Source: Escherichia coli (GTDB lineage Bacteria > Pseudomonadota > Gammaproteobacteria > Enterobacterales > Enterobacteriaceae). From it: a DNA stretch of 64,000 bases. The position numbers were made by a program, and so were the translations under genes. Within the stretch, counting starts at the first letter, position 1. Every line of letters starts with the position of its first letter. The stretch lies in the NCBI RefSeq assembly GCF_029227855.1, contig NZ_CP074356.1; one strand, given 5' to 3'. Positions 27,106 through 57,906 of the stretch are shown one piece after another. The notes under the pieces were generated by a model. The model saw only the letters and a list, made by a program, of their open reading frames with translations. It did not search any database and was not told the origin of the DNA.

Positions 27106-27257
27106 GAAACCATAGTGATGTTTTTTGACAATGTGTTAGCTCTTTATCAATAGGCCGCACGGTTGTTTGGTGGCGTCAAAATCGCCGAGGCGTTCCCTGA
27201 AGGCCGGGGCAGCCCACATGGATGTGGGCTGAGGGCGCGTTTTACAGGGATAATGAG

Positions 27258-27268
27258 ATGGACGCTCC
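27258..27268. repeat. Left subterminal inverted repeat of IS element
   Basis: atggacgctcc; reverse complement recurs at 28623..28633 and, imperfectly, over the transposase RBS at 27326..27335. Confidence 0.5.
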
Positions 27269-27336
27269 AGATTTTACGGTATCAAAGTACCAGACTGGAT
27301 CGTTGCAATACGTCCTGAAAAATTAGGAGCGTCCAC

Positions 27337-28362
27337 ATGAAAGTATCAACTCTTGGTATCGACTTGGCAAAGAACGTTTTTCAGCTTCATGGTGTCGATC
27401 ATGAAGGCCATACTATTTTGCGTAAAAAGCTCACCCGGGCTAAGTTTGTTCAGTTTGTGATTCAACTGGAACCTTGTCTGATTGGCATGGAAGCCTGCTC
27501 ATCCAGTCATTATTTTGCGCGATTATTCACCCGCTATGGTCATGAGGTAAAACTCATACCTCCGCAGTATGTGAAGCCTTATGTGAAAACGAACAAGACG
27601 GATGCAGCAGATGCTGAAGCAATCTGCGAAGCGGTAACCCGTCCGAATATGCGTTTTGTTCAGATAAAAACCGAAGAGCAGCAGGCCGTTTTAGCGTTAC
27701 ACACTGAACGGGGAATACTTATCCGTGAGCGGATTGCCTGTGCCAATAGTTTAAGAGCCACACTTGCTGAGTTTGGTATTACGATTGCGGCCGGACAAAA
27801 CCATTTAACCCGTGAGCTGCCAGCCATTCTGGAGGATGGCGAAAATGGTTTATCTCCCTTTGTCAGAACCAGCATCTACAGACAGTCTAAACATATCCGG
27901 GAACTTGAAGAACAAGTTAAACAGGTAGAAGAAGCTCTGGCCTCCTGGTATAGAACGCAGGAAGCCTGCCAGAGAATGGCCAAGATCCCGGGGGTTGGCA
28001 TGCTAACGGCCACTTATGTGGTAGCAGCAGTGGGTAATGCCCGACAATTCAGTACCGCAAAGCAGTTCGCTTCATGGCTGGGGCTGACACCAAAGGAACA
28101 TTCCAGCGGCGGGAAACAGCAACTGGGAGGGATCAGCAAACGTGGAGATGGATATTTCCGATACCTGCTGGTTCACGGCGCACGCGCACTTACCGCCTGG
28201 GTCAACCGAAACGGCGCGGTTGAGGAGAATTCCTGGCTTCAGGGACTCCTTGAGCGGAAGCACTACAATGTAGCTGTTGTCGCCATGGCGGCAAAAACAG
28301 CGAGGATCATGTGGTCAATATTGTCACACAATACTGAATATCAACCTCGGCAGCTCGCCTGA
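27337..28362 (+). CDS. IS110-family transposase/recombinase (DEDD RuvC-like N-domain plus C-terminal Ser domain)
   Basis: 341 aa; N-terminal GIDLAK, GMEACSS, DAADAEAI and C-terminal SSGG...GGISKRGD motifs typical of IS110/IS1111 transposases; resembles IS4321/IS5075 more than IS621. Confidence 0.9.
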   Translation: MKVSTLGIDLAKNVFQLHGVDHEGHTILRKKLTRAKFVQFVIQLEPCLIGMEACSSSHYFARLFTRYGHEVKLIPPQYVKPYVKTNKTDAADAEAICEAVTRPNMRFVQIKTEEQQAVLALHTERGILIRERIACANSLRATLAEFGITIAAGQNHLTRELPAILEDGENGLSPFVRTSIYRQSKHIRELEEQVKQVEEALASWYRTQEACQRMAKIPGVGMLTATYVVAAVGNARQFSTAKQFASWLGLTPKEHSSGGKQQLGGISKRGDGYFRYLLVHGARALTAWVNRNGAVEENSWLQGLLERKHYNVAVVAMAAKTARIMWSILSHNTEYQPRQLA

Positions 28363-28640
28363 CACAAGGTCAGTCAATCTGACGAGGTGCTGAAAAAAAG
28401 TTAACGTCCTGGTAGGTGCAAGTGACTTCAGAAGATGGCAAAACAGGTAAGACCGCAGGCAGGATACACCGAGAGGTAACAAGGGCAAGTTAGCCCGTAG
28501 AGGATGATTGGTACCTGCCTGGCGGATTTCATCATGGTTCGGGATAAAAATCCCATCAGAAACCGGATATATGGCTGCACCTACCCGTTTTATTACATAA
28601 CTGAAGAAAGCATTGCATTCCGGGAGCGTCCATATATGTT
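28363..28640 (+). ncRNA. Candidate IS-encoded guide (bridge/seek) RNA in right-end non-coding region
   Basis: IS1111-group elements encode their guide RNA downstream of the transposase; region has no ORF and several short stems (gtcagtcaatctgac); extent is guessed. Confidence 0.3.
28623..28633. repeat. Right subterminal inverted repeat of IS element
   Basis: ggagcgtccat, reverse complement of 27258..27268. Confidence 0.5.
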
Positions 28641-29170: not shown

Positions 29171-30607
29171 ATGAATCGTGATTTTTTTTATCCAGCCATC
29201 GCCTGTTTTCCGCTGTTACTGATGCTGACCGGGTGTGCGCCTATGCATGAAACCCGCCAGGCGTTAAGCCAGCAAACGCCCGCTGCACAAGTTGACACCG
29301 CATTACCCACGGCGCTGAAAAATGGTTGGCCAGACAGCCAATGGTGGCTGGAGTATCACGATAATCAACTCACTTCCTTAATTAATAACGCACTACAGAG
29401 CGCACCGGATATGCAGGTGGCTGAACAGCGCATTCAGCTGGCTGAAGCCCAGGCGAAGGCAATTGCCACTCAGGATGGTCCGCAGATCGACTTTTCTGCG
29501 GATATGGAGCGGCAAAAAATGTCTGCAGAAGGGTTAATGGGGCCGTTTGCTCTGAACGATCCTGCCGCAGGTACGACCGGTCCGTGGTACACCAACGGTA
29601 CTTTTGGCTTAACGGCGGGCTGGCATCTCGATATCTGGGGAAAGAATCGGGCGGAGGTTACTGCTCGCCTGGGTACGGTTAAAGCACGGGCGGCGGAACG
29701 CGAGCAAACCCGCCAATTGCTGGCTGGCAGCGTAGCCCGTCTGTACTGGGAGTGGCAAACCCAGGCGGCGTTAAACACTGTCTTACAGCAAATCGAAAAA
29801 GAGCAGAACACCATTATCGCCACCGATCGCCAGCTATATCAGAACGGGATTACTTCTTCAGTTGAAGGTGTGGAAACCGATATTAATGCCAGCAAAACCC
29901 GGCAGCAGCTCAACGATGTCGCGGGGAAAATGAAAATTATTGAGGCACGGTTAAATGCACTCACAAATCACCAGACAAAGGCATTGAAGCTTAATCCGGT
30001 CGCGTTGCCGAAAGTGGCAAGTCAGCTTCCTGATGAACTGGGGTACTCCTTACTGGCCCGGCGGGCAGATTTGCAGGCGGCGCACTGGTACGTTGAGTCA
30101 TCGTTAAGCACTATTGATGCGGCAAAAGCGGCATTTTATCCTGACATCAACCTGATGGCCTTCCTGCAACAGGATGCGTTGCACTTAAGCGATCTGTTCC
30201 GTCATTCCGCGCAGCAAATGGGCGTTACGGCAGGCCTGACGCTACCCATTTTCGATAGTGGTCGTCTTAACGCCAACCTCGATATCGCAAAAGCCGAAAG
30301 CAACTTGTCTATCGCCAGCTACAACAAAGCGGTGGTTGAAGCGGTGAATGACGTGGCGCGGGCAGCCAGTCAGGTTCAGACACTGGCGGAGAAAAACCAG
30401 CATCAGGCGCAAATTGAGCGCGATGCCTTGCGTGTAGTAGGTCTTGCGCAGGCGCGCTTTAACGCGGGCATCATTGCGGGTTCCCGCGTCAGCGAAGCCA
30501 GAATCCCCGCGCTGCGTGAGCGGGCCAATGGCCTGTTATTGCAAGGGCAGTGGCTGGATGCCTCCATTCAACTCACTGGTGCGTTGGGCGGGGGTTACAA
30601 ACGCTGA
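29171..30607 (+). CDS. mdtQ: Outer membrane efflux lipoprotein (OMF / NodT family) MdtQ, apparently intact
   Basis: ORF 29081..30607 trimmed to MNRDFFYP..; lipobox LTGC; two OEP-type repeats. Confidence 0.75.
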   Translation: MNRDFFYPAIACFPLLLMLTGCAPMHETRQALSQQTPAAQVDTALPTALKNGWPDSQWWLEYHDNQLTSLINNALQSAPDMQVAEQRIQLAEAQAKAIATQDGPQIDFSADMERQKMSAEGLMGPFALNDPAAGTTGPWYTNGTFGLTAGWHLDIWGKNRAEVTARLGTVKARAAEREQTRQLLAGSVARLYWEWQTQAALNTVLQQIEKEQNTIIATDRQLYQNGITSSVEGVETDINASKTRQQLNDVAGKMKIIEARLNALTNHQTKALKLNPVALPKVASQLPDELGYSLLARRADLQAAHWYVESSLSTIDAAKAAFYPDINLMAFLQQDALHLSDLFRHSAQQMGVTAGLTLPIFDSGRLNANLDIAKAESNLSIASYNKAVVEAVNDVARAASQVQTLAEKNQHQAQIERDALRVVGLAQARFNAGIIAGSRVSEARIPALRERANGLLLQGQWLDASIQLTGALGGGYKR

Positions 30608-30659
30608 TGATATGCGCCTTCTATACTTAACGTTTATTCAGCGTTAAGTGGAGAACTCG

Positions 30660-31421
30660 ATGGCACAGGTCGCGATTATTACCGCCTCCGATTCGGGGAT
30701 CGGCAAAGAGTGCGCGTTATTACTGGCGCAGCAGGGGTTTGATATTGGCATTACCTGGCACTCAGATGAATAAGGGGCAAAAGATACCGCGCGTGAGGTA
30801 GTTAGCCACGGCGTACGTGCGGAGATCGTGCAGCTGGATCTCGGCAATCTACCAGAAGGGGCACTGGCGCTGGAGAAACTCATTCAACGGCTGGGGCGTA
30901 TTGATGTGCTGGTGAATAATGCGGGCGCAATGACCAAAGCGCCGTTTCTTGATATGGCTTTCGATGAGTGGCGCAAGATTTTTACCGTTGATGTCGATGG
31001 TGCATTTTTATGCTCGCAAATTGCTGCCCGCCAGATGGTGAAACAAGGGCAGGGTGGTCGCATCATCAACATTACGTCGGTGCATGAACATACGCCGTTG
31101 CCGGATGCCAGCGCCTACACAGCCGCTAAACATGCGCTCGGCGGGTTAACCAAAGCGATGGCGCTGGAGCTGGTCAGGCATAAGATTTTGGTGAATGCGG
31201 TTGCACCTGGGGCGATCGCCACGCCAATGAACGGCATGGATGATGGCGACGTGAAGCCCGGCGCGGAGCCTTCGATTCCCTTGCGGCGTTTTGGCGCAAC
31301 GCATGAGATTGCCAGCCTGGTGGTGTGGCTTTGTTCGGAGGGCGCAAATTACACCACTGGGCAGTCGTTGATAGTGGATGGCGGCTTTATGCTGGCGAAT
31401 CCGCAGTTCAAGCCAGAATAG
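30660..31421 (+). pseudogene. yohF: Short-chain dehydrogenase YohF with in-frame ochre codon at codon 38
   Basis: ATG at 30660, Rossmann SDSGIGK motif, then TAA at 30771..30773; same frame continues as an SDR to 31421. Confidence 0.8.
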
Positions 31422-31459
31422 CGCAGTGAGGTGCGTGGTTATTTCAATGGGTAATATTT

Positions 31460-31545
31460 GGGTAGGCATGATAAGACGCACAAGCGTCGCATCAGGCATG
31501 GTGCACCGGATGTCGGATGCGGCGCGAACGCCTTATCCTAGGCAA
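31460..31545. repeat. Tandem REP elements
   Basis: gcatgataagacgca...gcgtcgcatcaggc and ccggatgtcggatgcggcgcgaacgccttatcc between yohF and yohD. Confidence 0.65.
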
Positions 31546-31550
31546 TGGTT

Positions 31551-32129
31551 TTACGCCTGATTATCCGGCTTTTTCTTCCCGCGCCGTTTCAGCCACCAGC
31601 GCACGCCTACCACCAGAACCACGACCAGAATCAACCAGACCCAGTGCTTCAAATGCTGGTCGAGATTGTGCAACCACGGCGCAATCACCTGACCACCAGC
31701 GTAACCGATAGTGGTAAAAATCAACGCCCAGGCAAATGCGCCAAGGATATTCAGTGGCAGAAAGATTTTCGGCGGCAGCTGGCTGGCACCAATCAGCGTC
31801 GGGCCAATGACCCGAAAGCCATACATAAAGCGCGTACCAATGACAAACAGATACGGATGGCGTTGGATAAGTTTCTGCGCCCGCTCAATTTTATCCTGAT
31901 GTTTCGAGAAACGGCGTAACAGCTTGCCGCCAAACCGCCGCCCGCACAGATAAAGCACCTGGTCGCCAATCATGCCGCCAAGCGCCACAGAAAGTACCAC
32001 CAGCGGGAACTTTAATAGCCCCTGATGTGCCGCAACGCCTCCCAGCAAAGTCACGGTTTCACCTTCCGCCAGGCTACCGATCACCAGCGCGGCATAACCA
32101 TATTGTGAGATGAGTGTATTGAGATCCAT
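31551..32129 (-). CDS. yohD: DedA-family inner membrane protein YohD
   Basis: 192 aa. Confidence 0.85.
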   Translation of the reverse strand: MDLNTLISQYGYAALVIGSLAEGETVTLLGGVAAHQGLLKFPLVVLSVALGGMIGDQVLYLCGRRFGGKLLRRFSKHQDKIERAQKLIQRHPYLFVIGTRFMYGFRVIGPTLIGASQLPPKIFLPLNILGAFAWALIFTTIGYAGGQVIAPWLHNLDQHLKHWVWLILVVVLVVGVRWWLKRRGKKKPDNQA

Positions 32130-32886: not shown

Positions 32887-33059
32887 AAAGTTCTTTTGTG
32901 TTGCATTGCTGGCGTAAATGTCAGCAATGCAGCATTTCCTCACGATTCTCCTTTGACGATCGCACTTTTTGCTCGTTATGATGGCGTCGCTAGCCTCAGT
33001 AAATCCTTACTCCGGCGGTGCGCAACCCGTGCGCGTGAACCACTATCTGAATGCTCATC

Positions 33060-42374: not shown

Positions 42375-43106
42375 TTAAATGCCGAGTGGGAAAATATCAT
42401 GGCCTTGTTCCTGCCAACTGGTAAGTTGCTGCTGTTGGGCAGAGGTTCGATTTTCACCGCACCACACCAGCAATGTACGGCCTTCGAACAGTTCAGGGCG
42501 TAGTTGATTGAGCGAGTGGGCGAGGACATCAATGCGCCATCCTTGTTGACTGGCAATCCAGCCCTCCAGCCACAGACGGGTGGTATCGTGAATATTCCAG
42601 CCAACCACCAGCGCATCTTTACCCTGTTTTTTACGTGCCGAAGCCAGACAAATGGCGATGTAGTTGATCAGTACGCCGTCGAGGATCGCCAGCAGCGCCT
42701 GGAGAGTCGGTTGTTGGCACTGAAGTCGTCGGCGCAGAGGAATAAACAGATGCGTGGTGAGTGTCTGGGCGGGGTAATCCTGACCGCGCTCTTTGATCCA
42801 CGTTCGCAGGCTATGCAGATTGCCGCTTTGCAGGTAAGTCAGTAATGTTTCTTGCTGATCGCGCCAGCCGTTCTGCACATCAACATTTTCATTACTGAGC
42901 AGCATTTTAACTTTGCTGACCTGCACGCCGTTGTCGATCCAGCGTTTGATCTCGCGGATCCGGTCAATATCGGCATCGTTGAACAGCCGATGGCCGCCGT
43001 CTGTCCGTTGCGGTTTCAGCAATCCGTAACGCCTCTGACACGCGCGTAACGTGACAGGGTTAATATCACAAAGCAACGCCACTTCACCAATTGTGTAAAG
43101 CGCCAT
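42375..43106 (-). CDS. mlrA: MerR-family regulator MlrA (curli/csgD activator)
   Basis: 243 aa; N-terminal MerR HTH. Confidence 0.9.
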   Translation of the reverse strand: MALYTIGEVALLCDINPVTLRACQRRYGLLKPQRTDGGHRLFNDADIDRIREIKRWIDNGVQVSKVKMLLSNENVDVQNGWRDQQETLLTYLQSGNLHSLRTWIKERGQDYPAQTLTTHLFIPLRRRLQCQQPTLQALLAILDGVLINYIAICLASARKKQGKDALVVGWNIHDTTRLWLEGWIASQQGWRIDVLAHSLNQLRPELFEGRTLLVWCGENRTSAQQQQLTSWQEQGHDIFPLGI

Positions 43107-48874: not shown

Positions 48875-50007
48875 GACTGAAGATTCTCCGCAAGCCAGGT
48901 CGCCAGTTCGCCCGGCGTCATGGCGGCTATTTGTGCACCGACATTAACCAGTGCCTGGGCCATATCGCGGTCATAGCAAGGTGTTGCGGTGCTATCGAGC
49001 GCCGCCAGTCCCAGCACTTTGACGCCGCTCTGGACACACTTTTTCACCTGATGCGTCAGCAATGATGATGAACCCCCTTCATAGAAATCGCTCACGAGGA
49101 TAATGACGCTTTTCGCTGGTTGTTCAATAAGTTGCCGACCATACTCCACGGCACTGGCGATATTGGTCCCGCCGCCCAGTTGTACTTTCATTAATAACTC
49201 TACTGGATCAGCAACGTCTGCCGTGAGATCAACGACGCTGGTGTCAAACGCCACCAGATGGGTACGAATGCCGGGTAACTGCCATAAACAGGCCGCCATC
49301 ACCGCAGAGTGGATCACCGAATCGACCATCGATCCGCTTTGATCAACCAGTAAGACCAGTTGCCATTGTTCGCTTTGGCGTTTAATGCGGCTGTTAAAGC
49401 GGGGGGATTCGATATACAACTTGTCGTGTTGCGGGTGCCAGTGTTGCAGGTTGGCGCGCAGAGTACTTTTGAAATCAAAGTTTCGCGCCAGTGGAATAAA
49501 TGAGCGGCGACGGCGATCGCGGACACCAGAAAAAGCCTGACGAACTTCCTTTGCCAGTCGCGCCATAATTTCTTCAACTACCTGGCGCACTATCCGGCGG
49601 GCGGCAGCCAGCACTTCGGGATTCATCAGATGTTTGGTGTGCAAAACGGCGCGTAACAGGCTTTCAGAAGGCTGCATACGTTCCAGCACGTCGAGATTCG
49701 TCAGCACATCTTCAATGCCGTAGCGCAGTACGGCATCGCTTTCCAGCCGCTCGATCACCTGTTGCGGAAACAGCGTGTGAATACTGTTGATCCACTCAGG
49801 GGTGGTGAGATTTGAGCCACCTAATCCACCAGAGCGTTCACCACGCTGGAGCCGTTCAGGATCGCGCCCATACAGCCACTCCAGCGCGTGGTCTATCTGC
49901 CGGGCGTTGTCATCCAGCCCACAAAGGGTCGTTTCTGCCGCTTCGCCAAGAATTAATCGCCAGCGTTGTAGCTCACGGGTGGTCAGAAGATCGTTCAGTT
50001 CAGACAT
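48871..50007 (-). CDS. yehP: von Willebrand factor A (VWA) domain protein YehP
   Basis: ORF 48871..50235 trimmed to MSELNDLL.. (378 aa); DxSGS MIDAS-like motif (VDQSGSM). Confidence 0.85.
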   Translation of the reverse strand: MSELNDLLTTRELQRWRLILGEAAETTLCGLDDNARQIDHALEWLYGRDPERLQRGERSGGLGGSNLTTPEWINSIHTLFPQQVIERLESDAVLRYGIEDVLTNLDVLERMQPSESLLRAVLHTKHLMNPEVLAAARRIVRQVVEEIMARLAKEVRQAFSGVRDRRRRSFIPLARNFDFKSTLRANLQHWHPQHDKLYIESPRFNSRIKRQSEQWQLVLLVDQSGSMVDSVIHSAVMAACLWQLPGIRTHLVAFDTSVVDLTADVADPVELLMKVQLGGGTNIASAVEYGRQLIEQPAKSVIILVSDFYEGGSSSLLTHQVKKCVQSGVKVLGLAALDSTATPCYDRDMAQALVNVGAQIAAMTPGELATWLAENLQS

Positions 50008-52231
50008 GGAAAACTCCCCAGTGTTGCAGCGATGCCAGTGCCTGCTGTTCGAGTTGTTGATGATGTGCAATGGCTTGTGGTGGACAATGCAACGGCATTT
50101 GCAGCGCTGAAACGGGAAGCTGTGCGAGCTGGTAATGCTCAAGCACCTGATGCGCCAGCGTCCCGCGTTCTCGTGGTGGTAGCCAGGCCATCGCTGCGCG
50201 TAAATCGGGCAGGGCGTTAATAAAATCGTCGTCACTCAGTTGATTTAAATGACTACTGAAACCGGCGATAAATGCCGGCTGACAGGCCAGTTGATGGCGG
50301 GCCAGCGCCAGCATCGTCAGCGCCGCTTCGGCACTGGCGTTGGGATGTTCCAGACGCATTAGTGCGCCAAGAGCCGCGCTGCGATCCAGCGCCGGGGCAT
50401 GAATCGCCTGACTGCGGCGCTCCAGTAAGGCTACCGCCGCAGAAAGCGAAACGCCGGGTAAATTAACGCCGCTATGTAGATCGCGCAGGATATGGCAAAG
50501 CGCCTGCCAGCTATGCAGGTGAGCGTGAAACTCCTTTTCCTCCGGTCTGCCGTTGGATTCACACAGCCAGAGTGTGCGATCGATAGCCGCGCATAACGTC
50601 GTCTGTAATATCTGCGCGCCTTGCATACCGCTAATTTCATCCAGCCGCCATAAGGCGTATAGCACTTCCAGCGCCTGGCCCATTTCGGCAAACTGATTTT
50701 CCTGGGCGATTAATAATGTAAGTTGCTCCAGTAATTGTTGACTGAAGGACGCCAGACCCGCTAACGCCGCCTGGCTAAGACATGTGGTGATACTGCCGAT
50801 TCCACCCGCGTCCAGCATATCGGCTTCTAATTTATTGCGTGCGGCTTCCTGGAGTGTGGCACCAAAGCAGGCGGCCTCAATCAATGCCGCATGCTGGCTA
50901 AGCGGGCGGGTTAATTTCCAGCGTTCTTCACCGTTGCCTGCAAGTGTCAGTGTGCTTCCCTGCTGGCGTACAATCCCTGGGATCTCCAGTATTACCAGCC
51001 GATGTAACACCTGACTTTGCGCCAGTCCATCGGGGGTAAAGCGATTTAAGGTAAGCTCTGCCGGAAGAGAGATTGTGGTACGTTCCAGTTCGCAGGTGAC
51101 ATCTTTTGGCAGAGGCGGCTGTGGCGTAGAGGGGGCAAGTTTACCGAATCCGCCACCCGCTAATGTGTCTATCAACGTTAGCAGAATCGGATCGGTATCG
51201 GGATGAATAACGCCGCGATAGCTCCACGGCAACGGCGCGTTCAAGGCTTCTTTAATCAGCGAGCCTGCTATGGCATCCAGCCAGTCAGTGCGTAACGGTA
51301 GTGTATGACCGCGCAACTGTGCCAGCGCCATCGCATGCAGATGAGCGGCAGCCATATCAGCGGTAGAAGCGGGCAATTTGTGCTGGCGCAAACGGGTAAG
51401 GATAGTTTTTAGCAGTTGTTCACCGGCCTGCTGTAGGCCCCACTGCCAGCACCAGTTTTGCCAGACCGGGGCAGGCATACCAGAAAGGTATCCTGCCAGC
51501 ACATCAAGGCGCTTTTCACTGTAGGGGGTGAGATAACAACCTGTAACGGCATCTGCCAGCTAGGGCAATTCCGGCGTGTTAATTTCCTGCGTGTATTCGC
51601 GCCACATCTTTGCCAGTGCCGGAGCATGCCAGCCGCCGCAGACGACTAACACGTCGCCATTGTTTTGCTGCATCGCCCATCCAATCCAGCGGGCCATAAA
51701 GGCTTCGCGCTGACGATTGAGGGCATCTCCGGGGGAATCGCCCCGCAGTTGTGCAAAATAGTGCGCCAGCGCAGAGGGTAATGCAGTTTGCTGGCTTTCA
51801 TCTTCGAACAAGTGATCCCACAGGGTGTCGCTGTTATCCATGCGGGTGGCACGCAGCAGTAAGGTCTGGCTGTCATCTTGCGTATCGGGTGATTCGTCTT
51901 CTTCTTCACTCTGCGCCCAGCAAGGCAAATCGATGAAGTAAGTTTGTGCCTGAATACGACGTGCGGCTTGTAGCGCCTGCCACTCCGGCGAAAATTCAGC
52001 AAATGGCGTCCAGGCACCACGCCCGGGGGCTGCACCGTCCTGATACTGGCAATAACTGTAAATAGCTACCGGAAGCTGGTGGGCTAAAAACAGTTCGTCT
52101 ACCCGGTCATTAAAATCAGCCGGGCCTTCAATCAACACGTATCGTGGCCGCTGGCTTTCGATTAACGATTTCACCAGCCGGGCGCAGGCCGGACTATGAT
52201 GCCGGATGCCGACAATTAACGGCTCGCTCAT
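50000..52231 (-). pseudogene. yehM: YehM, interrupted by a single in-frame amber codon
   Basis: ORFs 51560..52399 and 50000..51502 are in the same frame, separated only by TAG at 51560..51562; start MSEPLIVGIRHH at 52231 with GAGGAAAG RBS. Confidence 0.7.
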
Positions 52232-52241
52232 GCATCTTTCC

Positions 52242-53319
52242 TCACGGCAGGCGGTGGCGGGCTTGATAATAAGCCTGCCAGTGAGCTTCTTTATGTGTGG
52301 CGACACGCTGTTCGAAGTAACGGCGCAGACGCGCGCGATCTTCTTCGTTATCTTTAACGATGGTTCCGGCAATACAGTCCACCAGATCGGCTGGCTCACC
52401 TGCGCGATTCGCTAAAAACCAGGCGCGGACGCCCACTGCGTGGGCCACGTTCACGGCTTCAGCGGTGGATATAATTGCCGTCAGAGTATCCATTGACGTT
52501 TTCTTTTCGCCGTTGGCACGCAGATCGCGGAAGGTGCGGACCAGTAACTCCAGTACCGCGTCAGGCACTTTATGCGGAATACCGCTATGGGCCAGCAAAC
52601 GCGCCGAAGCACTGGCGACCAGTTCCAGCTCCTGGGCGAAATCCATAATCGGAAAGACGGTTTCAAAATCGAAGCGACGCTTTAGCGCGGCACTCATCTC
52701 ATTGACGCCGCGATCGCGGGTATTGGCAGTGGCAATAATATTAAAGCCTTCCCGCGCATAGAGCTGACTGGCTTCACCGGTGAGTTCCGGCACCGTCATC
52801 ACCCTGTCAGAAAGCATACCTAACAGACAGTCTTGTACTTCCAGCGGTGTACGCGTTATCTCTTCAAAACGGACGATTTTGCCGTCGCGCATTCCCTGGT
52901 AAAGCGGGGCAGGGACCAGTGCTTCCGTAGACGGACCATGGTTGATAAGCAGGGCGTAGTTCCATTTGATCTTCAGTAGTAGATGCGCCGCCCTGGATGG
53001 TTAACCCGGCATCGCCGCTAATAGCGGTTGCCAGTAATTCAGACAGGAGAGATTTTGCGGTGCCCGGTTCCCCCACCAACATCAAACCGCGCCCGGTGGC
53101 AAGAGTGACTAACATACGTTCGACAGCGGAGGGACTAATCACCACTTTACGGCTAATATTTTGCGCGCTATCGCCAAGGATAAAAGCACGGGCCGCAGGC
53201 AAACTTAACTGCCAACCGGGCGGGCAAGGTGCGTTATCATTTTGTTTTAATTTTGCCAGTTCATCGGCGTATAACACAGCAGCAGGCGGACGCTGCAGAT
53301 GATTATTCTGCGGTGACAT
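52242..53319 (-). pseudogene. yehL: MoxR-type AAA+ ATPase YehL, frameshifted
   Basis: Walker A GEPGTAKS lies in ORF 52864..53385; continuation ([26 protein letters not shown]) is in another frame from about 52965; total span 1078 nt is not a multiple of 3. Confidence 0.7.
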
Positions 53320-53431
53320 ATATTCATCCCTGAAATGTATTAATGAAATAAACGATATTTTACGCGCAATAAATGTTTGGCGCATTAGTTGTTTGAGCGA
53401 AAAATATCTGGAAAGCAGATCACAGTAAATA

Positions 53432-53466
53432 AAAAAACCTGCTGGTGAGGCAGGTTCTTTTATTTA
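53432..53466. terminator. Bidirectional rho-independent terminator
   Basis: aaaaaaa-cctgc-tggtgag-gcagg-ttctttt; A-run and T-run flank the stem, so it works in both orientations. Confidence 0.6.
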
Positions 53467-53513
53467 CTATTTTCAGGCCCAACACCGCAGCCTGTGCAAC
53501 ATCGTGTTCCAAC
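53432..53513 (-). ncRNA. Candidate antisense antitoxin sRNA (OrzO-like)
   Basis: Minus-strand -35 TTGCAA (53548..53543) and -10 TATAAT (53525..53520) put the start near 53513; first 18 nt are complementary to 53662..53679 in the toxin 5' UTR at 17/18; ends at terminator 53432..53466 (about 81 nt). Confidence 0.4.
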
Positions 53514-53519
53514 GAACGA

Positions 53520-53570
53520 ATTATAACCATCGGTGGACCCCGTTGCAATTAAGATAATGAGATTTATAAT
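53520..53570. promoter_or_regulatory. Divergent sigma70 promoter pair sharing a palindromic -35 TTGCAA
   Basis: Plus strand: TTGCAA (53543..53548), 16-bp spacer, TATAAT (53565..53570). Minus strand: the same TTGCAA, 17-bp spacer, TATAAT (53525..53520). Confidence 0.55.
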
Positions 53571-53751
53571 CCAGACGGTTGGGACGTTGCGCCGGATCGG
53601 ACCAATTTTAAGTCCTGGCTACCGGACGGGTGGTGCTGCAGGTGGTGCCCTGATCCGGAGTGCAACATCGTGGTCCAACATACGTAAACCAGTATCGACA
53701 GGCAGTGTAAGGGTAAGGTGCTGGTGTTGCGCTCCTTAATAAGGAGAGCGG

Positions 53752-53841
53752 ATGGACACGCTGACACAAAAGTTAACCGTGCTCATTGCCGTACTGGAGC
53801 TATTAGTGGCTCTGTTACGGTTGATTGATTTGTTGAAGTAA
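53752..53841 (+). CDS. zorO: Type I toxin-like small hydrophobic peptide (ZorO-like, 29 aa)
   Basis: AAGGAG RBS at 53741..53746 then MDTLTQKLTVLIAVLELLVALLRLIDLLK; single amphipathic helix like TisB/DinQ-type toxins; not recalled at this position in K-12. Confidence 0.6.
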   Translation: MDTLTQKLTVLIAVLELLVALLRLIDLLK

Positions 53842-53863
53842 TGGGCAAATTGAAACGCATCTA

Positions 53864-53887
53864 AGGGGGAATACCGTTTCCCCCTTT
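53864..53887. terminator. Stem-loop between convergent zorO-like ORF and yehK
   Basis: aggggga-ataccgtt-tccccct followed by tttaataaagctattttt. Confidence 0.5.
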
Positions 53888-53894
53888 AATAAAG

Positions 53895-54215
53895 CTATTT
53901 TTCTATTTCTTGGTTGAATATATTCTGTAGTTCGCGATTAAAAATGGCTATTACCGTTTCTGGTGATTCGCCCCGTAATTTTCGCTCATCAATAAACTCA
54001 TCTCTTATATAAATCAACGCATCATTTATTAGCGGGTCGACATCCTCTCGATCACGTTGATGAAATGTTGGATGTAGCCGGAATCGCTCCAGTCGGTAGA
54101 CGGAACCTGTAAATAATTCAGAGCATTTATGGATCTCAAGTCTGAAGGAAAACGGATCTTCAGGTACAGGGACCTCATAATCGTAAATAGCAACCAGCTC
54201 TTTTTGCACGATCAT
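53895..54215 (-). CDS. yehK: Uncharacterised protein YehK
   Basis: 106-aa ORF downstream of yehI. Confidence 0.65.
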   Translation of the reverse strand: MIVQKELVAIYDYEVPVPEDPFSFRLEIHKCSELFTGSVYRLERFRLHPTFHQRDREDVDPLINDALIYIRDEFIDERKLRGESPETVIAIFNRELQNIFNQEIEK

Positions 54216-54275
54216 CGCTTTTCCCGGTGGCAGGTCGTGTTAATAACGGGCAGTCGCATCACTGCCCGCTGTGTT

Positions 54276-57200
54276 TTAATGGAAAATGACGTCGGGTGCG
54301 CTTAACGCTTCACTCAAATCAAACACATCAAGTTCGGCAAAAGTGACAGATTTATTGTCACGGTATACATGAAGAGAACGGAAGCTCATTAGCGCTTTGC
54401 TATCAACATTGTAGTGGTTAAAACCGGATGAAAACTTAAGGACCAGCCGGTACTCGCCCAGGTCATAGACAAATGCATTCTCATAGCCTGACTCCCAGCC
54501 TTTGTATCGCATTCCCATAAGTTGCCCAACGGTAGCAGATTTACCTTCCCAGCGATTCAAACTATTACTGGCTGACTCGTCAGGCGTGAGCAGTACTGTG
54601 CGCCGTGCCAATTGGCGAAAAGGCGGCATAATTTCGTAATCGGCAAAAAGCTGTGCAAACTCACTGCGCATTTCTGCTGCCATTTCTAACGGGTGGGCAA
54701 TGCCAATCAGAGCATCGGCAGGCAGGTCAATTGGCTCATCTTGCTCATTGCAGAACTCCCCCTCAGCGGCCACACGAAAGGCGTTGAGTAAACGACGCGG
54801 TTCATTTGCCGGATAAACACCCCATATTAATCGCTGAGTAACCAGACGGGTAAAGGGATGATTAACAAACAGAGAATGAAAATCTGCCAGCGACCAGCGT
54901 CGGGTGGTGCGCAGGGCAGTTTCAAGACGCGGGAGCAGGTTTTTGCTCACCTGAGTGGCATCTTTTTTTAGCCCTTTTAGTCGGGCCAGTGCCTCGGGTG
55001 CTTTCAGTTGATCGTCATCGGCGCGCAACCGGGGAACGCTTTTCTGGCGAACGTTTTGCTGATCAAAGATAACCGGGTTAAGGTTTTCATCGAAGCGAAC
55101 GGTAAATTGCCGTGGACCAAAATCAAAAATCAACGCCTGCGGATCATCAAGACCCAGTGTTGGGACTAATCTGTCCGCTAACTGTTCCTGGCTTAGCCCT
55201 CGATTTTCTGCGACCACCTGAAGAAATTCCGCCGCGTTATCACGTAAGGGGCGGGATTTCGCCCGTTGCGATATATGATGCAGCTGTATCAGTGCCATAT
55301 CATTATTCATCTGAGTAAGTATGTTCAGGCCGCTGACGGCACGGGCAGATTTGCCTTCCTGTGGCCAGGCAAGGATCTGTGTCGTCAGATCCCGTGCCGT
55401 GCTTTCGTCGCCAAAGAGACTTAACGCCAGAAATGCCCAGTTGTCTTTTGCGGGAGCACCAGCTTGTTGCCACGCGGTGAAAAGATCCCAGGCAAAAGCT
55501 GCCAGCGTTTGCGGCTGGCAGAAAGTTTTCAGTTGTTCCAGTCCGCTATAAACGTCCGCCCTGGGTAAAGCGCAGCATTTCGCCGATAATTTCCAGTGCG
55601 TCATCGGTAACAGGCTGATTATTCGTGATAAGGCGCGGCCTGGACCACATTGCCGGCTGCCAGAAATCAGGGGCTTTTGGAATGCGTGTCGGGTAAATCT
55701 CTATTGGACTCTGTTTAAGTAAATGCTCCAGGGCAGGCCATACATCTGTACGCTGCCAGCGGTTTGCCGCGGTTTGCAGCAATTCACCATGTCCCTGTTC
55801 GTAAAGTAAACGTAGGGCAAGTAATGCAGCTTCGCTATTATCGCTGGATTTGGTGAAGACAAGAGGGATAAGTGCAGTAGCCGTATGTTCCGGCCATTGT
55901 AAAATCCACTGGCGAGCCAGATCACGCTGCGCCGCGAAACGTCGCCAGACGCGGGCAACGGGCAGGGCCAGTTCTGTTGCGCCAAAATTTAAAATTAACG
56001 GAAATGTTTCTTTTGGACGATATGAAAAAGCCAACAGCAGACCTGGTAGAGCATCCAATCCGAAGATACTGAGAAAATAGTCCTCACCCGCTAACAGATG
56101 CTTTTTCTCATTGATACGTAGCCAGAAAGTCAAAGCCATCTCACGCGGCAACTGTGCCAATAAATACAGGTTCCAGATACTCTTTTCCCGACGATAGCGT
56201 GAGTAGCTGTCATTTTCCCATATGTTAATTAACACTTCTACGTGACCGCTGCGAAGCGCCTGTTCTGCTAATTGTGCTTCCGGGGAGTTCCAGCCATTCA
56301 GGATCTCTTCAACCCGCCCCTGGTAGTAATGCCACTGAACAATGAGTGAATTGCGTGCAGCATCCAGTTTTCCGGGGAGTATATAATTCAGAAACAGCCA
56401 TACATCATCTCCAAAACCCAGCTCCTGTAGTACAACTCGTCCACTTTTATGTTCCATGCGTTCCGAAAGAGATTCCGTGCTGAAATAACGGGCAGACTCA
56501 GTGGCGGCAAGCCTCTCTCGTTCGCCTGGTTGCCAGTAAACTTGCGGCGTTAATTCGAACGGTGCCAAATCAAGACGTGGAACTGTCATTTTTTTCTTAC
56601 TACGCCACGGTGGTGAAACGAGGATTTCAGGCATTTGGCTGTTATCGGTGCTATCAATAACCGTTTTAGGCGGTGCCGATAAATAACTATTCAGCACTGA
56701 CCGGGCTTGAGTACTTAACCACGGCATCACCTCTTCTGCCAGTTGTGGCTGCGATGCCATCAGCGTTTGTAACAGCGTACGCCAGTATTCATCACGTGCT
56801 TTTTGCTGTGCAGGCAGCTTTTTGTCTTCGATGATTGGATAACCAGGGCGCGTAGGTGGTTCTTTTAGCGCCAGCAGTTCTGCCAGTGCGGCAAGCGTCG
56901 CATGGGGGAAATTTTTACTGTATTTAGCTACACGTTGCAGGCTGGGTTTGTTTTTATCAGCAACTAACAGCAGGGTGCGGATGACCTGCGGATGGTTAAT
57001 TTGTACCAGCAGACTGCCGCAATCTTCTTTATGGGCATACATTGCCAGGCGTGGAACGGCTGCCAGTCCTTGTTCGCGCAAAAGGGCAGCGCAGGCCGCG
57101 TAGCCGAAGTGGTTTTCATGCGACATGTAGCTGGCTTCCCGATCGCTAAATATATCCTGGCTCCAGTAGCGTTCGAGTTTTCTCACCGCTCTGGGGTCAA

Positions 57201-57906
57201 TAGCAACAACTTTTAACCACTCCTTAGAATGAAAATGAGTCCACGGGCATTCAAGGCTTACCAACTCATTGGCGATTTCTGGTTTTTCCGGGAGGATCAG
57301 AGCAATAAAAGGGCGGCGAACTTTGGTTATTCCTGGCAGTGCGGCAATGAGTTTGTCGGCGCAACGCTGCCAGCTGCTTTCCTCTGCCAGAGAGAGATGC
57401 TTACGCAGTCGGAGATCGAATTCGTTATAGGTTTCTGATCGATAACCATAGCCATAATCCTCGTTCTGATACTGCAATGTCACTAGCAGAGGATCACTTT
57501 CATAACATCGTGTAATAAACTGGCGTGCAATCACCACCTCAGTCGCATATTCCAGTCCCTCTTGTTGGACGATTTCGTCGAGCAACTGTTGGCTATCATT
57601 TTGCGCGATACAGGCTAGCGCCGCCATTGTCCGGGCCGGAACTGAGGGTTTGTGTTCGCCAATCAAGTTGATGGCCTGCGTAATGGCCGACTGCCACTCC
57701 AGTGAAAAATTTTCATAACGCCAGACAATGTTTTTTTTCTTCTCAGCTTTTTGTAGCAATTCATCACCCAGTGTCTGGATGAGGCTTTCAGTGATAACAG
57801 GCACCGGTTCGCCCGGCCAACTGCGATGGCTGAGCGGCGTTTTGCCTTTTTTATATTTCAGTTCCACTTGGGCGTTATCCGCCAGCCACGGTAATTCCTT
57901 GTCCAT
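54276..57906 (-). pseudogene. yehI: YehI (DUF4132 family giant protein), frameshifted
   Basis: ORF 55546..57906 (786 aa) and ORF 54276..55604 (442 aa) overlap in different frames; together they align end-to-end with the intact neighbouring paralogue. Confidence 0.65.

Follow-up and report, generated by a model that had tools for sequence, protein, structure and literature searches.

A single G-to-T change has probably turned yohF into a young pseudogene in one Escherichia coli lineage

In the stretch of 64,000 nucleotides of E. coli DNA that was analysed in this study, to which we refer as the window, the gene yohF most likely constitutes a young pseudogene that became fixed in its lineage and that originates from one G>T transversion, converting GAA (Glu38) into TAA with concomitant loss of function. 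We assign a probability of about 0.93 to this reading, which is based on the comparison of the gene with intact and interrupted alleles from other assemblies.

Results

Reading frame and identity of yohF

The gene is placed between mdtQ and yohD, in the same order as found in K-12, ST131, E2865 and strain 104. The features of the locus are listed below with their coordinates in the window and their strand.

30660..31421, plus strand: yohF, predicted pseudogene, 253 codons followed by its normal TAG stop, with a single interruption
30771..30773, plus strand: premature ochre codon TAA of yohF (codon 38), with T at 30771 instead of the G of GAA (Glu38)
30660..30773, plus strand: N-terminal remnant open reading frame of yohF, 37 residues and stop, containing the T[GA]xxxGxG cofactor-binding motif at residues 8-15
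30828..31421, plus strand: C-terminal remnant open reading frame of yohF, GTG start, 197 codons, containing NNAG (86-89), Ser140 and Tyr153-x3-Lys157 and lacking the glycine-rich loop
31412, plus strand: private single-nucleotide difference of yohF, G for C, changing AAC (Asn251) to AAG (Lys251)
29171..30607, plus strand: mdtQ, intact, 52 bp upstream of yohF, as judged from the annotation of the identical sequence in strain JNEC-KY178 and from the list of open reading frames
31551..32129, minus strand: yohD, downstream of yohF and convergent with it

Translation of the region 30660-31424 yields MAQVAIITASDSGIGKECALLLAQQGFDIGITWHSDE in front of the TAA at codon 38. Direct reading bears out a preliminary description of the locus, which had placed the start of yohF at the ATG at 30660 and had noted a SDSGIGK motif, located within the TASDSGIG region of residues 8-15, and a TAA at 30771..30773 as codon 38. 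Direct reading and translation similarly recover the unbroken frame of the short-chain dehydrogenase/reductase (SDR) type that had been proposed to continue past codon 38 to 31421, where it terminates with the TAG at 31419-31421. In the mechanical list of open reading frames, the gene is accordingly split into a short N-terminal frame ending at 30773 and a frame of 197 codons extending from the GTG at 30828 to 31421.

With Glu placed at codon 38, the encoded protein reaches 482.9 bits with the NCBIfam equivalog NF009384 (classical SDR), whose curated cut-off is 264, with residues 1-253 being covered by the model. It is also matched along its full length by the Pfam models adh_short and adh_short_C2 and is near-identical to the E. 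coli protein deposited as 'Uncharacterized oxidoreductase YohF' (PDB 6OZ7). All signature residues of an SDR are encoded, including TASDSGIG (8-15), Ser140 and YTAAK (153-157). Score, motifs and gene position thus all place the gene in the YohF family, with the TAA at codon 38 depriving it of an uninterrupted frame for the whole protein. Judged from these features of the sequence, the yohF of the window is a pseudogene of this family and no functional member, and the TAA genuinely interrupts an actual gene, as opposed to a chance open reading frame. Papers mentioning yohF ascribe to it a predicted function only, either as acetoin dehydrogenase/diacetyl reductase or as 'putative oxidoreductase' (PMC3781023, PMC4079197, PMC10509014, PMC4447067).

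The neighbouring mdtQ (29171-30607, plus strand) is intact in the window with 478 codons, whereas it is annotated as a pseudogene in K-12 MG1655.

Distribution of the codon 38 allele

The preliminary description had given GAA (Glu) as codon 38 of K-12 and had thus proposed a one-base G-to-T nonsense change, to be checked by alignment with other E. coli alleles. The yohF of K-12 MG1655 does carry GAA at this codon, which defines the change in the window as a G>T transversion at 30771, and the same GAA is present in roughly 5,400 further complete genomes of E. coli. K-12 YohF (b2137; PDB 6OZ7) is encoded by the same gene, likewise located between mdtQ and yohD, and the protein is identical except for four codons. 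It contains Glu38 within an uninterrupted frame, and Ser196, Asp201 and Asn251 at positions where the window encodes Gly, Gly and Lys. At the nucleotide level, both genes differ in 26 bases, which besides the stop account for three amino-acid changes (Ser196Gly, Asp201Gly and Asn251Lys). The region containing the TAA shows an end-to-end alignment with intact orthologues, and near relatives carry a sense codon at the equivalent position, as is characteristic of a nonsense pseudogene.

The exact 61-mer surrounding the TAA is shared by only one of 5,426 complete E. coli genomes. Within the same set, the 961-base region around yohF finds no perfect match, its best match with a single mismatch being JNEC-KY178, a clinical isolate from Japan, for which a literature search retrieved no paper. 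The whole window of 64,000 bases is collinear with this genome, without gaps and with seven single-nucleotide differences, and T is found at 30771 in both. The JNEC-KY178 gene (NZ_AP045174.1, AC0J0T_RS08425), labelled by PGAP/RefSeq as pseudo with 'internal stop', shares with the window the TAA at codon 38, the haplotype and the flanks, including an upstream insertion of the IS110 family, but has C at 31412 (Asn251), where the window has G (Lys251).

In a collection of 15 billion proteins, the exact 37-residue N-terminal product is found on 82 contigs, a count that overstates the true carriers of the E38* allele, since among ten contigs that were retrieved, seven contain a genuine TAA whereas in the other three (L013, L015 and L016) the gene has kept the G and is cut by the contig end. 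Across 3-6 kb, four of the seven (L008, L009, L011 and L014) show no or almost no difference from the window. L008 stems from a metagenome assembly, and the other three originate from separate sequencing runs. The presence of the same TAA in independent assemblies of one lineage indicates that the stop was inherited and is no error of this particular assembly.

The same stop on three haplotypes

The remaining three contigs with TAA are found outside the lineage of the window. L010 and L012 carry a haplotype B and L007 a haplotype C, which differ from haplotype A of the window at about 24-35 sites within yohF. For both B and C, an intact counterpart with 761/762 identity exists in many complete genomes, the single difference being G>T at nucleotide 112 (G112T). 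As haplotypes A, B and C each otherwise match an intact allele, the same nonsense change is present on three backgrounds.

Two processes could have led to this distribution, recurrent mutation on the one hand and, on the other, a TAA that arose once and was spread to other haplotypes by homologous recombination over short tracts. Latter would be feasible, since no difference separates A, B and C from 30735 to 30826, so that a tract of at most 92-155 bp could carry just this one base. We nevertheless consider such gene conversion unlikely, as it would require several very short tracts, each moving exactly one variant, and as other stops in yohF, which are also found on multiple backgrounds, are more simply explained by independent mutation. 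From the alleles at hand, the data appear to fit both recurrent mutation and short-tract recombination, with recurrent mutation offering the simpler account.

Other early stops in yohF

For the remaining peptide to be long enough for gene calling, a stop has to be located at about codon 31 or later, and in this range of the first 40 codons of yohF, the stop-capable codons are 33, 35, 37 and 38. All four were found as single-stop alleles, each on at least two haplotype backgrounds, with W33* occurring in TAG and TGA forms on at least five and S35* (TAA) and E37* (TAA) on two each. Although located at codons other than 38, these alleles, and equally the yohF fragments of Shigella flexneri, resemble the window in their single early nonsense change and in the same remnant open reading frame of 197 codons. 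W33* is far more widespread than E38*, as illustrated by its 32-residue product, which is found on 600 contigs compared to 82. Among 5,426 complete genomes, the E38* allele is present in one and one W33* haplotype in three. Since each of the null alleles is rare and contains only one lesion, none of them has persisted for long. In a carrier of S35* (L027:12-1448, GCA_902844405.1), mdtQ is also split (open reading frames of 267 and 207 residues), so that in this strain neither mdtQ nor yohF has remained intact.

As a control, we have used the neighbouring genes yohD and yohC, where peptides of lengths that would result from a one-step stop are found on 24-99 contigs, with two of eight tested lengths being absent from the collection, whereas lengths that are unreachable by a one-step stop are found on 3-5 contigs. 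The E38* count of 82 is inside the range of this control, which counts contigs rather than independent events and judges stops by peptide length. An unusual load of null alleles in yohF is not supported by these counts, and a hotspot that is specific for codon 38 is ruled out by the finding that all four stop-capable codons (33, 35, 37 and 38) are affected on multiple backgrounds. In its simplest reading, the recurrence of stops in yohF would reflect an enormous sample in which mutation has reached saturation and null alleles are tolerated but short-lived.

The identical G112T change on three haplotypes, which are each otherwise equal to a common intact allele, together with the presence of W33*, S35* and E37* as single-stop alleles on two or more backgrounds each, could also be taken as a sign of adaptive loss, where the same G>T with at least three origins and the other early stops would reflect selection for inactivation in some host or clinical niche. 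If true, yohF would be a case of antagonistic pleiotropy. We regard such adaptation as very improbable in light of several observations: every detectable stop-capable codon is affected, as predicted by saturation and not by a hotspot, peptides of nonsense length are similarly frequent in yohD and yohC (24-99 compared to 82 contigs), null alleles are rare among complete genomes (one and three of 5,426) and intact alleles are under purifying selection. The latter is deduced from pairs of intact alleles, which show 16-28 differences in synonymous codons compared to 2-6 in nonsynonymous ones, this excess of synonymous differences implying that yohF is normally subject to purifying selection.

Predicted consequence for the protein

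Translation of the interrupted gene would stop after residue 37 and produce a peptide consisting only of strand β1, the glycine-rich cofactor loop, helix αA and strand β2. The cofactor loop TASDSGIG (8-15) is encoded upstream of the stop, and NNAG (86-89), Ser140 and Tyr153-x3-Lys157 downstream of it. Ser140, Tyr153 and Lys157 would thus be translatable only via reinitiation at the GTG at 30828, whose product, devoid of the cofactor loop and of both strands at the centre of the Rossmann sheet, should be inactive. The 197-residue remnant matches the Pfam SDR models only from model positions 50-56 onwards, which identifies it as lacking the loop and the first Rossmann strands. As far as can be predicted, neither of the two pieces should be active, and the activity of YohF would be lost from the cell. 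A polar effect of the stop is not expected, since no gene follows yohF in its transcription unit and the next gene, yohD, is convergent. No sigma-70-like site was found within 30400-31700, which rules out a new promoter generated by the G>T change, and no tRNA gene is contained in the 64-kb window, which rules out a nearby suppressor tRNA. The cell presumably tolerates the loss because of the dispensability of YohF, an SDR with an only predicted function as acetoin/diacetyl reductase. Its dispensability in K-12 we take to be established by genome-wide knockout collections.

The downstream frame is wholly intact, the GTG at 30828 is preceded by a GGAG 3 nt upstream, and the 197-residue open reading frame is predicted by gene callers in sister assemblies. 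These features could suggest that function is kept, either because the UAA is read through or suppressed, because two fragments act in place of the whole protein, or because reinitiation yields a product of 197 residues that works without an intact N-terminus. We hold this for highly improbable. No programmed recoding route for UAA is known in E. coli. A recoded gene would be expected to conserve its stop in orthologues, whereas the stop described here is missing in more than 99.9% of genomes, with the 61-mer found in one of 5,426 and intact siblings existing for every haplotype that carries it. Suppression is further disfavoured by the absence of tRNA genes within the window, and the 197-residue fragment is devoid of the T[GA]xxxGxG loop and of the first approximately 56 residues of the Rossmann fold. 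Finally, the intactness of the downstream frame is accounted for by the youth of the mutation.

Age of the inactivation and a private change at codon 251

Except for the T, the yohF of the lineage is base for base the intact allele of ST131, and the genes flanking yohF differ from ST131 by 1-2%. The identity to an intact allele and the lack of any further lesion in the lineage characterize the inactivation as recent. In the window, the gene contains one additional change at 31412, a position at which C (AAC, Asn251) is found in JNEC-KY178, all other members of the lineage and every further genome that was examined. G at this position is absent from the complete genomes, and products with Lys251 are absent from the collection of 15 billion proteins. 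By this comparison, Asn251Lys is a derived change of the window that arose after the stop. It would fit neutral drift in a dead gene, or possibly an error at 31412. The location of one of the seven single-nucleotide differences between the window and JNEC-KY178 inside the 762 bp of yohF is not statistically remarkable. Two others of the seven are found in mlrA (minus strand, window position 43038), which encodes a curli regulator and where codon 23 is TGT (Cys) here compared to TGG (Trp) in JNEC-KY178, and in yeiS (minus strand, 22789), where codon 52 is GGA (Gly) compared to GAA (Glu).

That the TAA itself would be a sequencing or assembly error in a genome with a true GAA, for which one could invoke that the allele is shared by only one of 5,426 complete genomes and that the same gene carries a private difference at 31412, can be dismissed as practically excluded, since the same T is common to five independently generated assemblies of the lineage (JNEC-KY178, L008, L009, L011 and L014) and a substitution error would not repeat at one base across separate runs.

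Other features of the window

An IS110-type element of about 1.39 kb is located at 27251-28637, with an open reading frame on the plus strand (27337-28362, 341 residues) that is annotated by PGAP as 'IS110 family RNA-guided transposase'. Its site is the repeat-rich spacer between dusC and yohP, parts of which match other strains in inverted orientation. The element is present in JNEC-KY178 and at the contig end of L008, and it is absent from K-12, ST131, E2865 and strain 104.

In the yeh cluster (50000-57906, minus strand), three neighbouring genes are disrupted, which are all intact in the ST131 strain SK1144. With yehM, yehL and yehI from this one cluster and yohF, the 64 kb contain four pseudogenes that are specific to the lineage. 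These genes and two RNA features are listed below.

50000-51502 and 51560-52399, minus strand: open reading frames of yehM, internal stop
52242-52892 and 52864-53385, minus strand: open reading frames of yehL, frameshift
54276-55604 and 55546-57906, minus strand: open reading frames of yehI, frameshift
53431-53506, minus strand: OrzO-P antitoxin RNA, Rfam 101 bits, above the gathering score, between yehL and yehK
32975-33055, plus strand: Peptidase-S11 leader motif, Rfam 73 bits, above the gathering score, just upstream of pbpG

Discussion

As judged by the alleles compared in our study, the loss of yohF in the window is that of an ordinary nonsense pseudogene, of which the identical allele has already been annotated in RefSeq. 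With the very large collections of genomes now available, finding an identical nonsense mutation on several haplotypes is to be expected and would on its own be no evidence of selection. The E38* allele marks one sparsely sampled lineage of E. coli, from which it would remove an enzyme of only predicted role, and it provides a clean, verified example of what appears to be a young pseudogene generated by a single hit.
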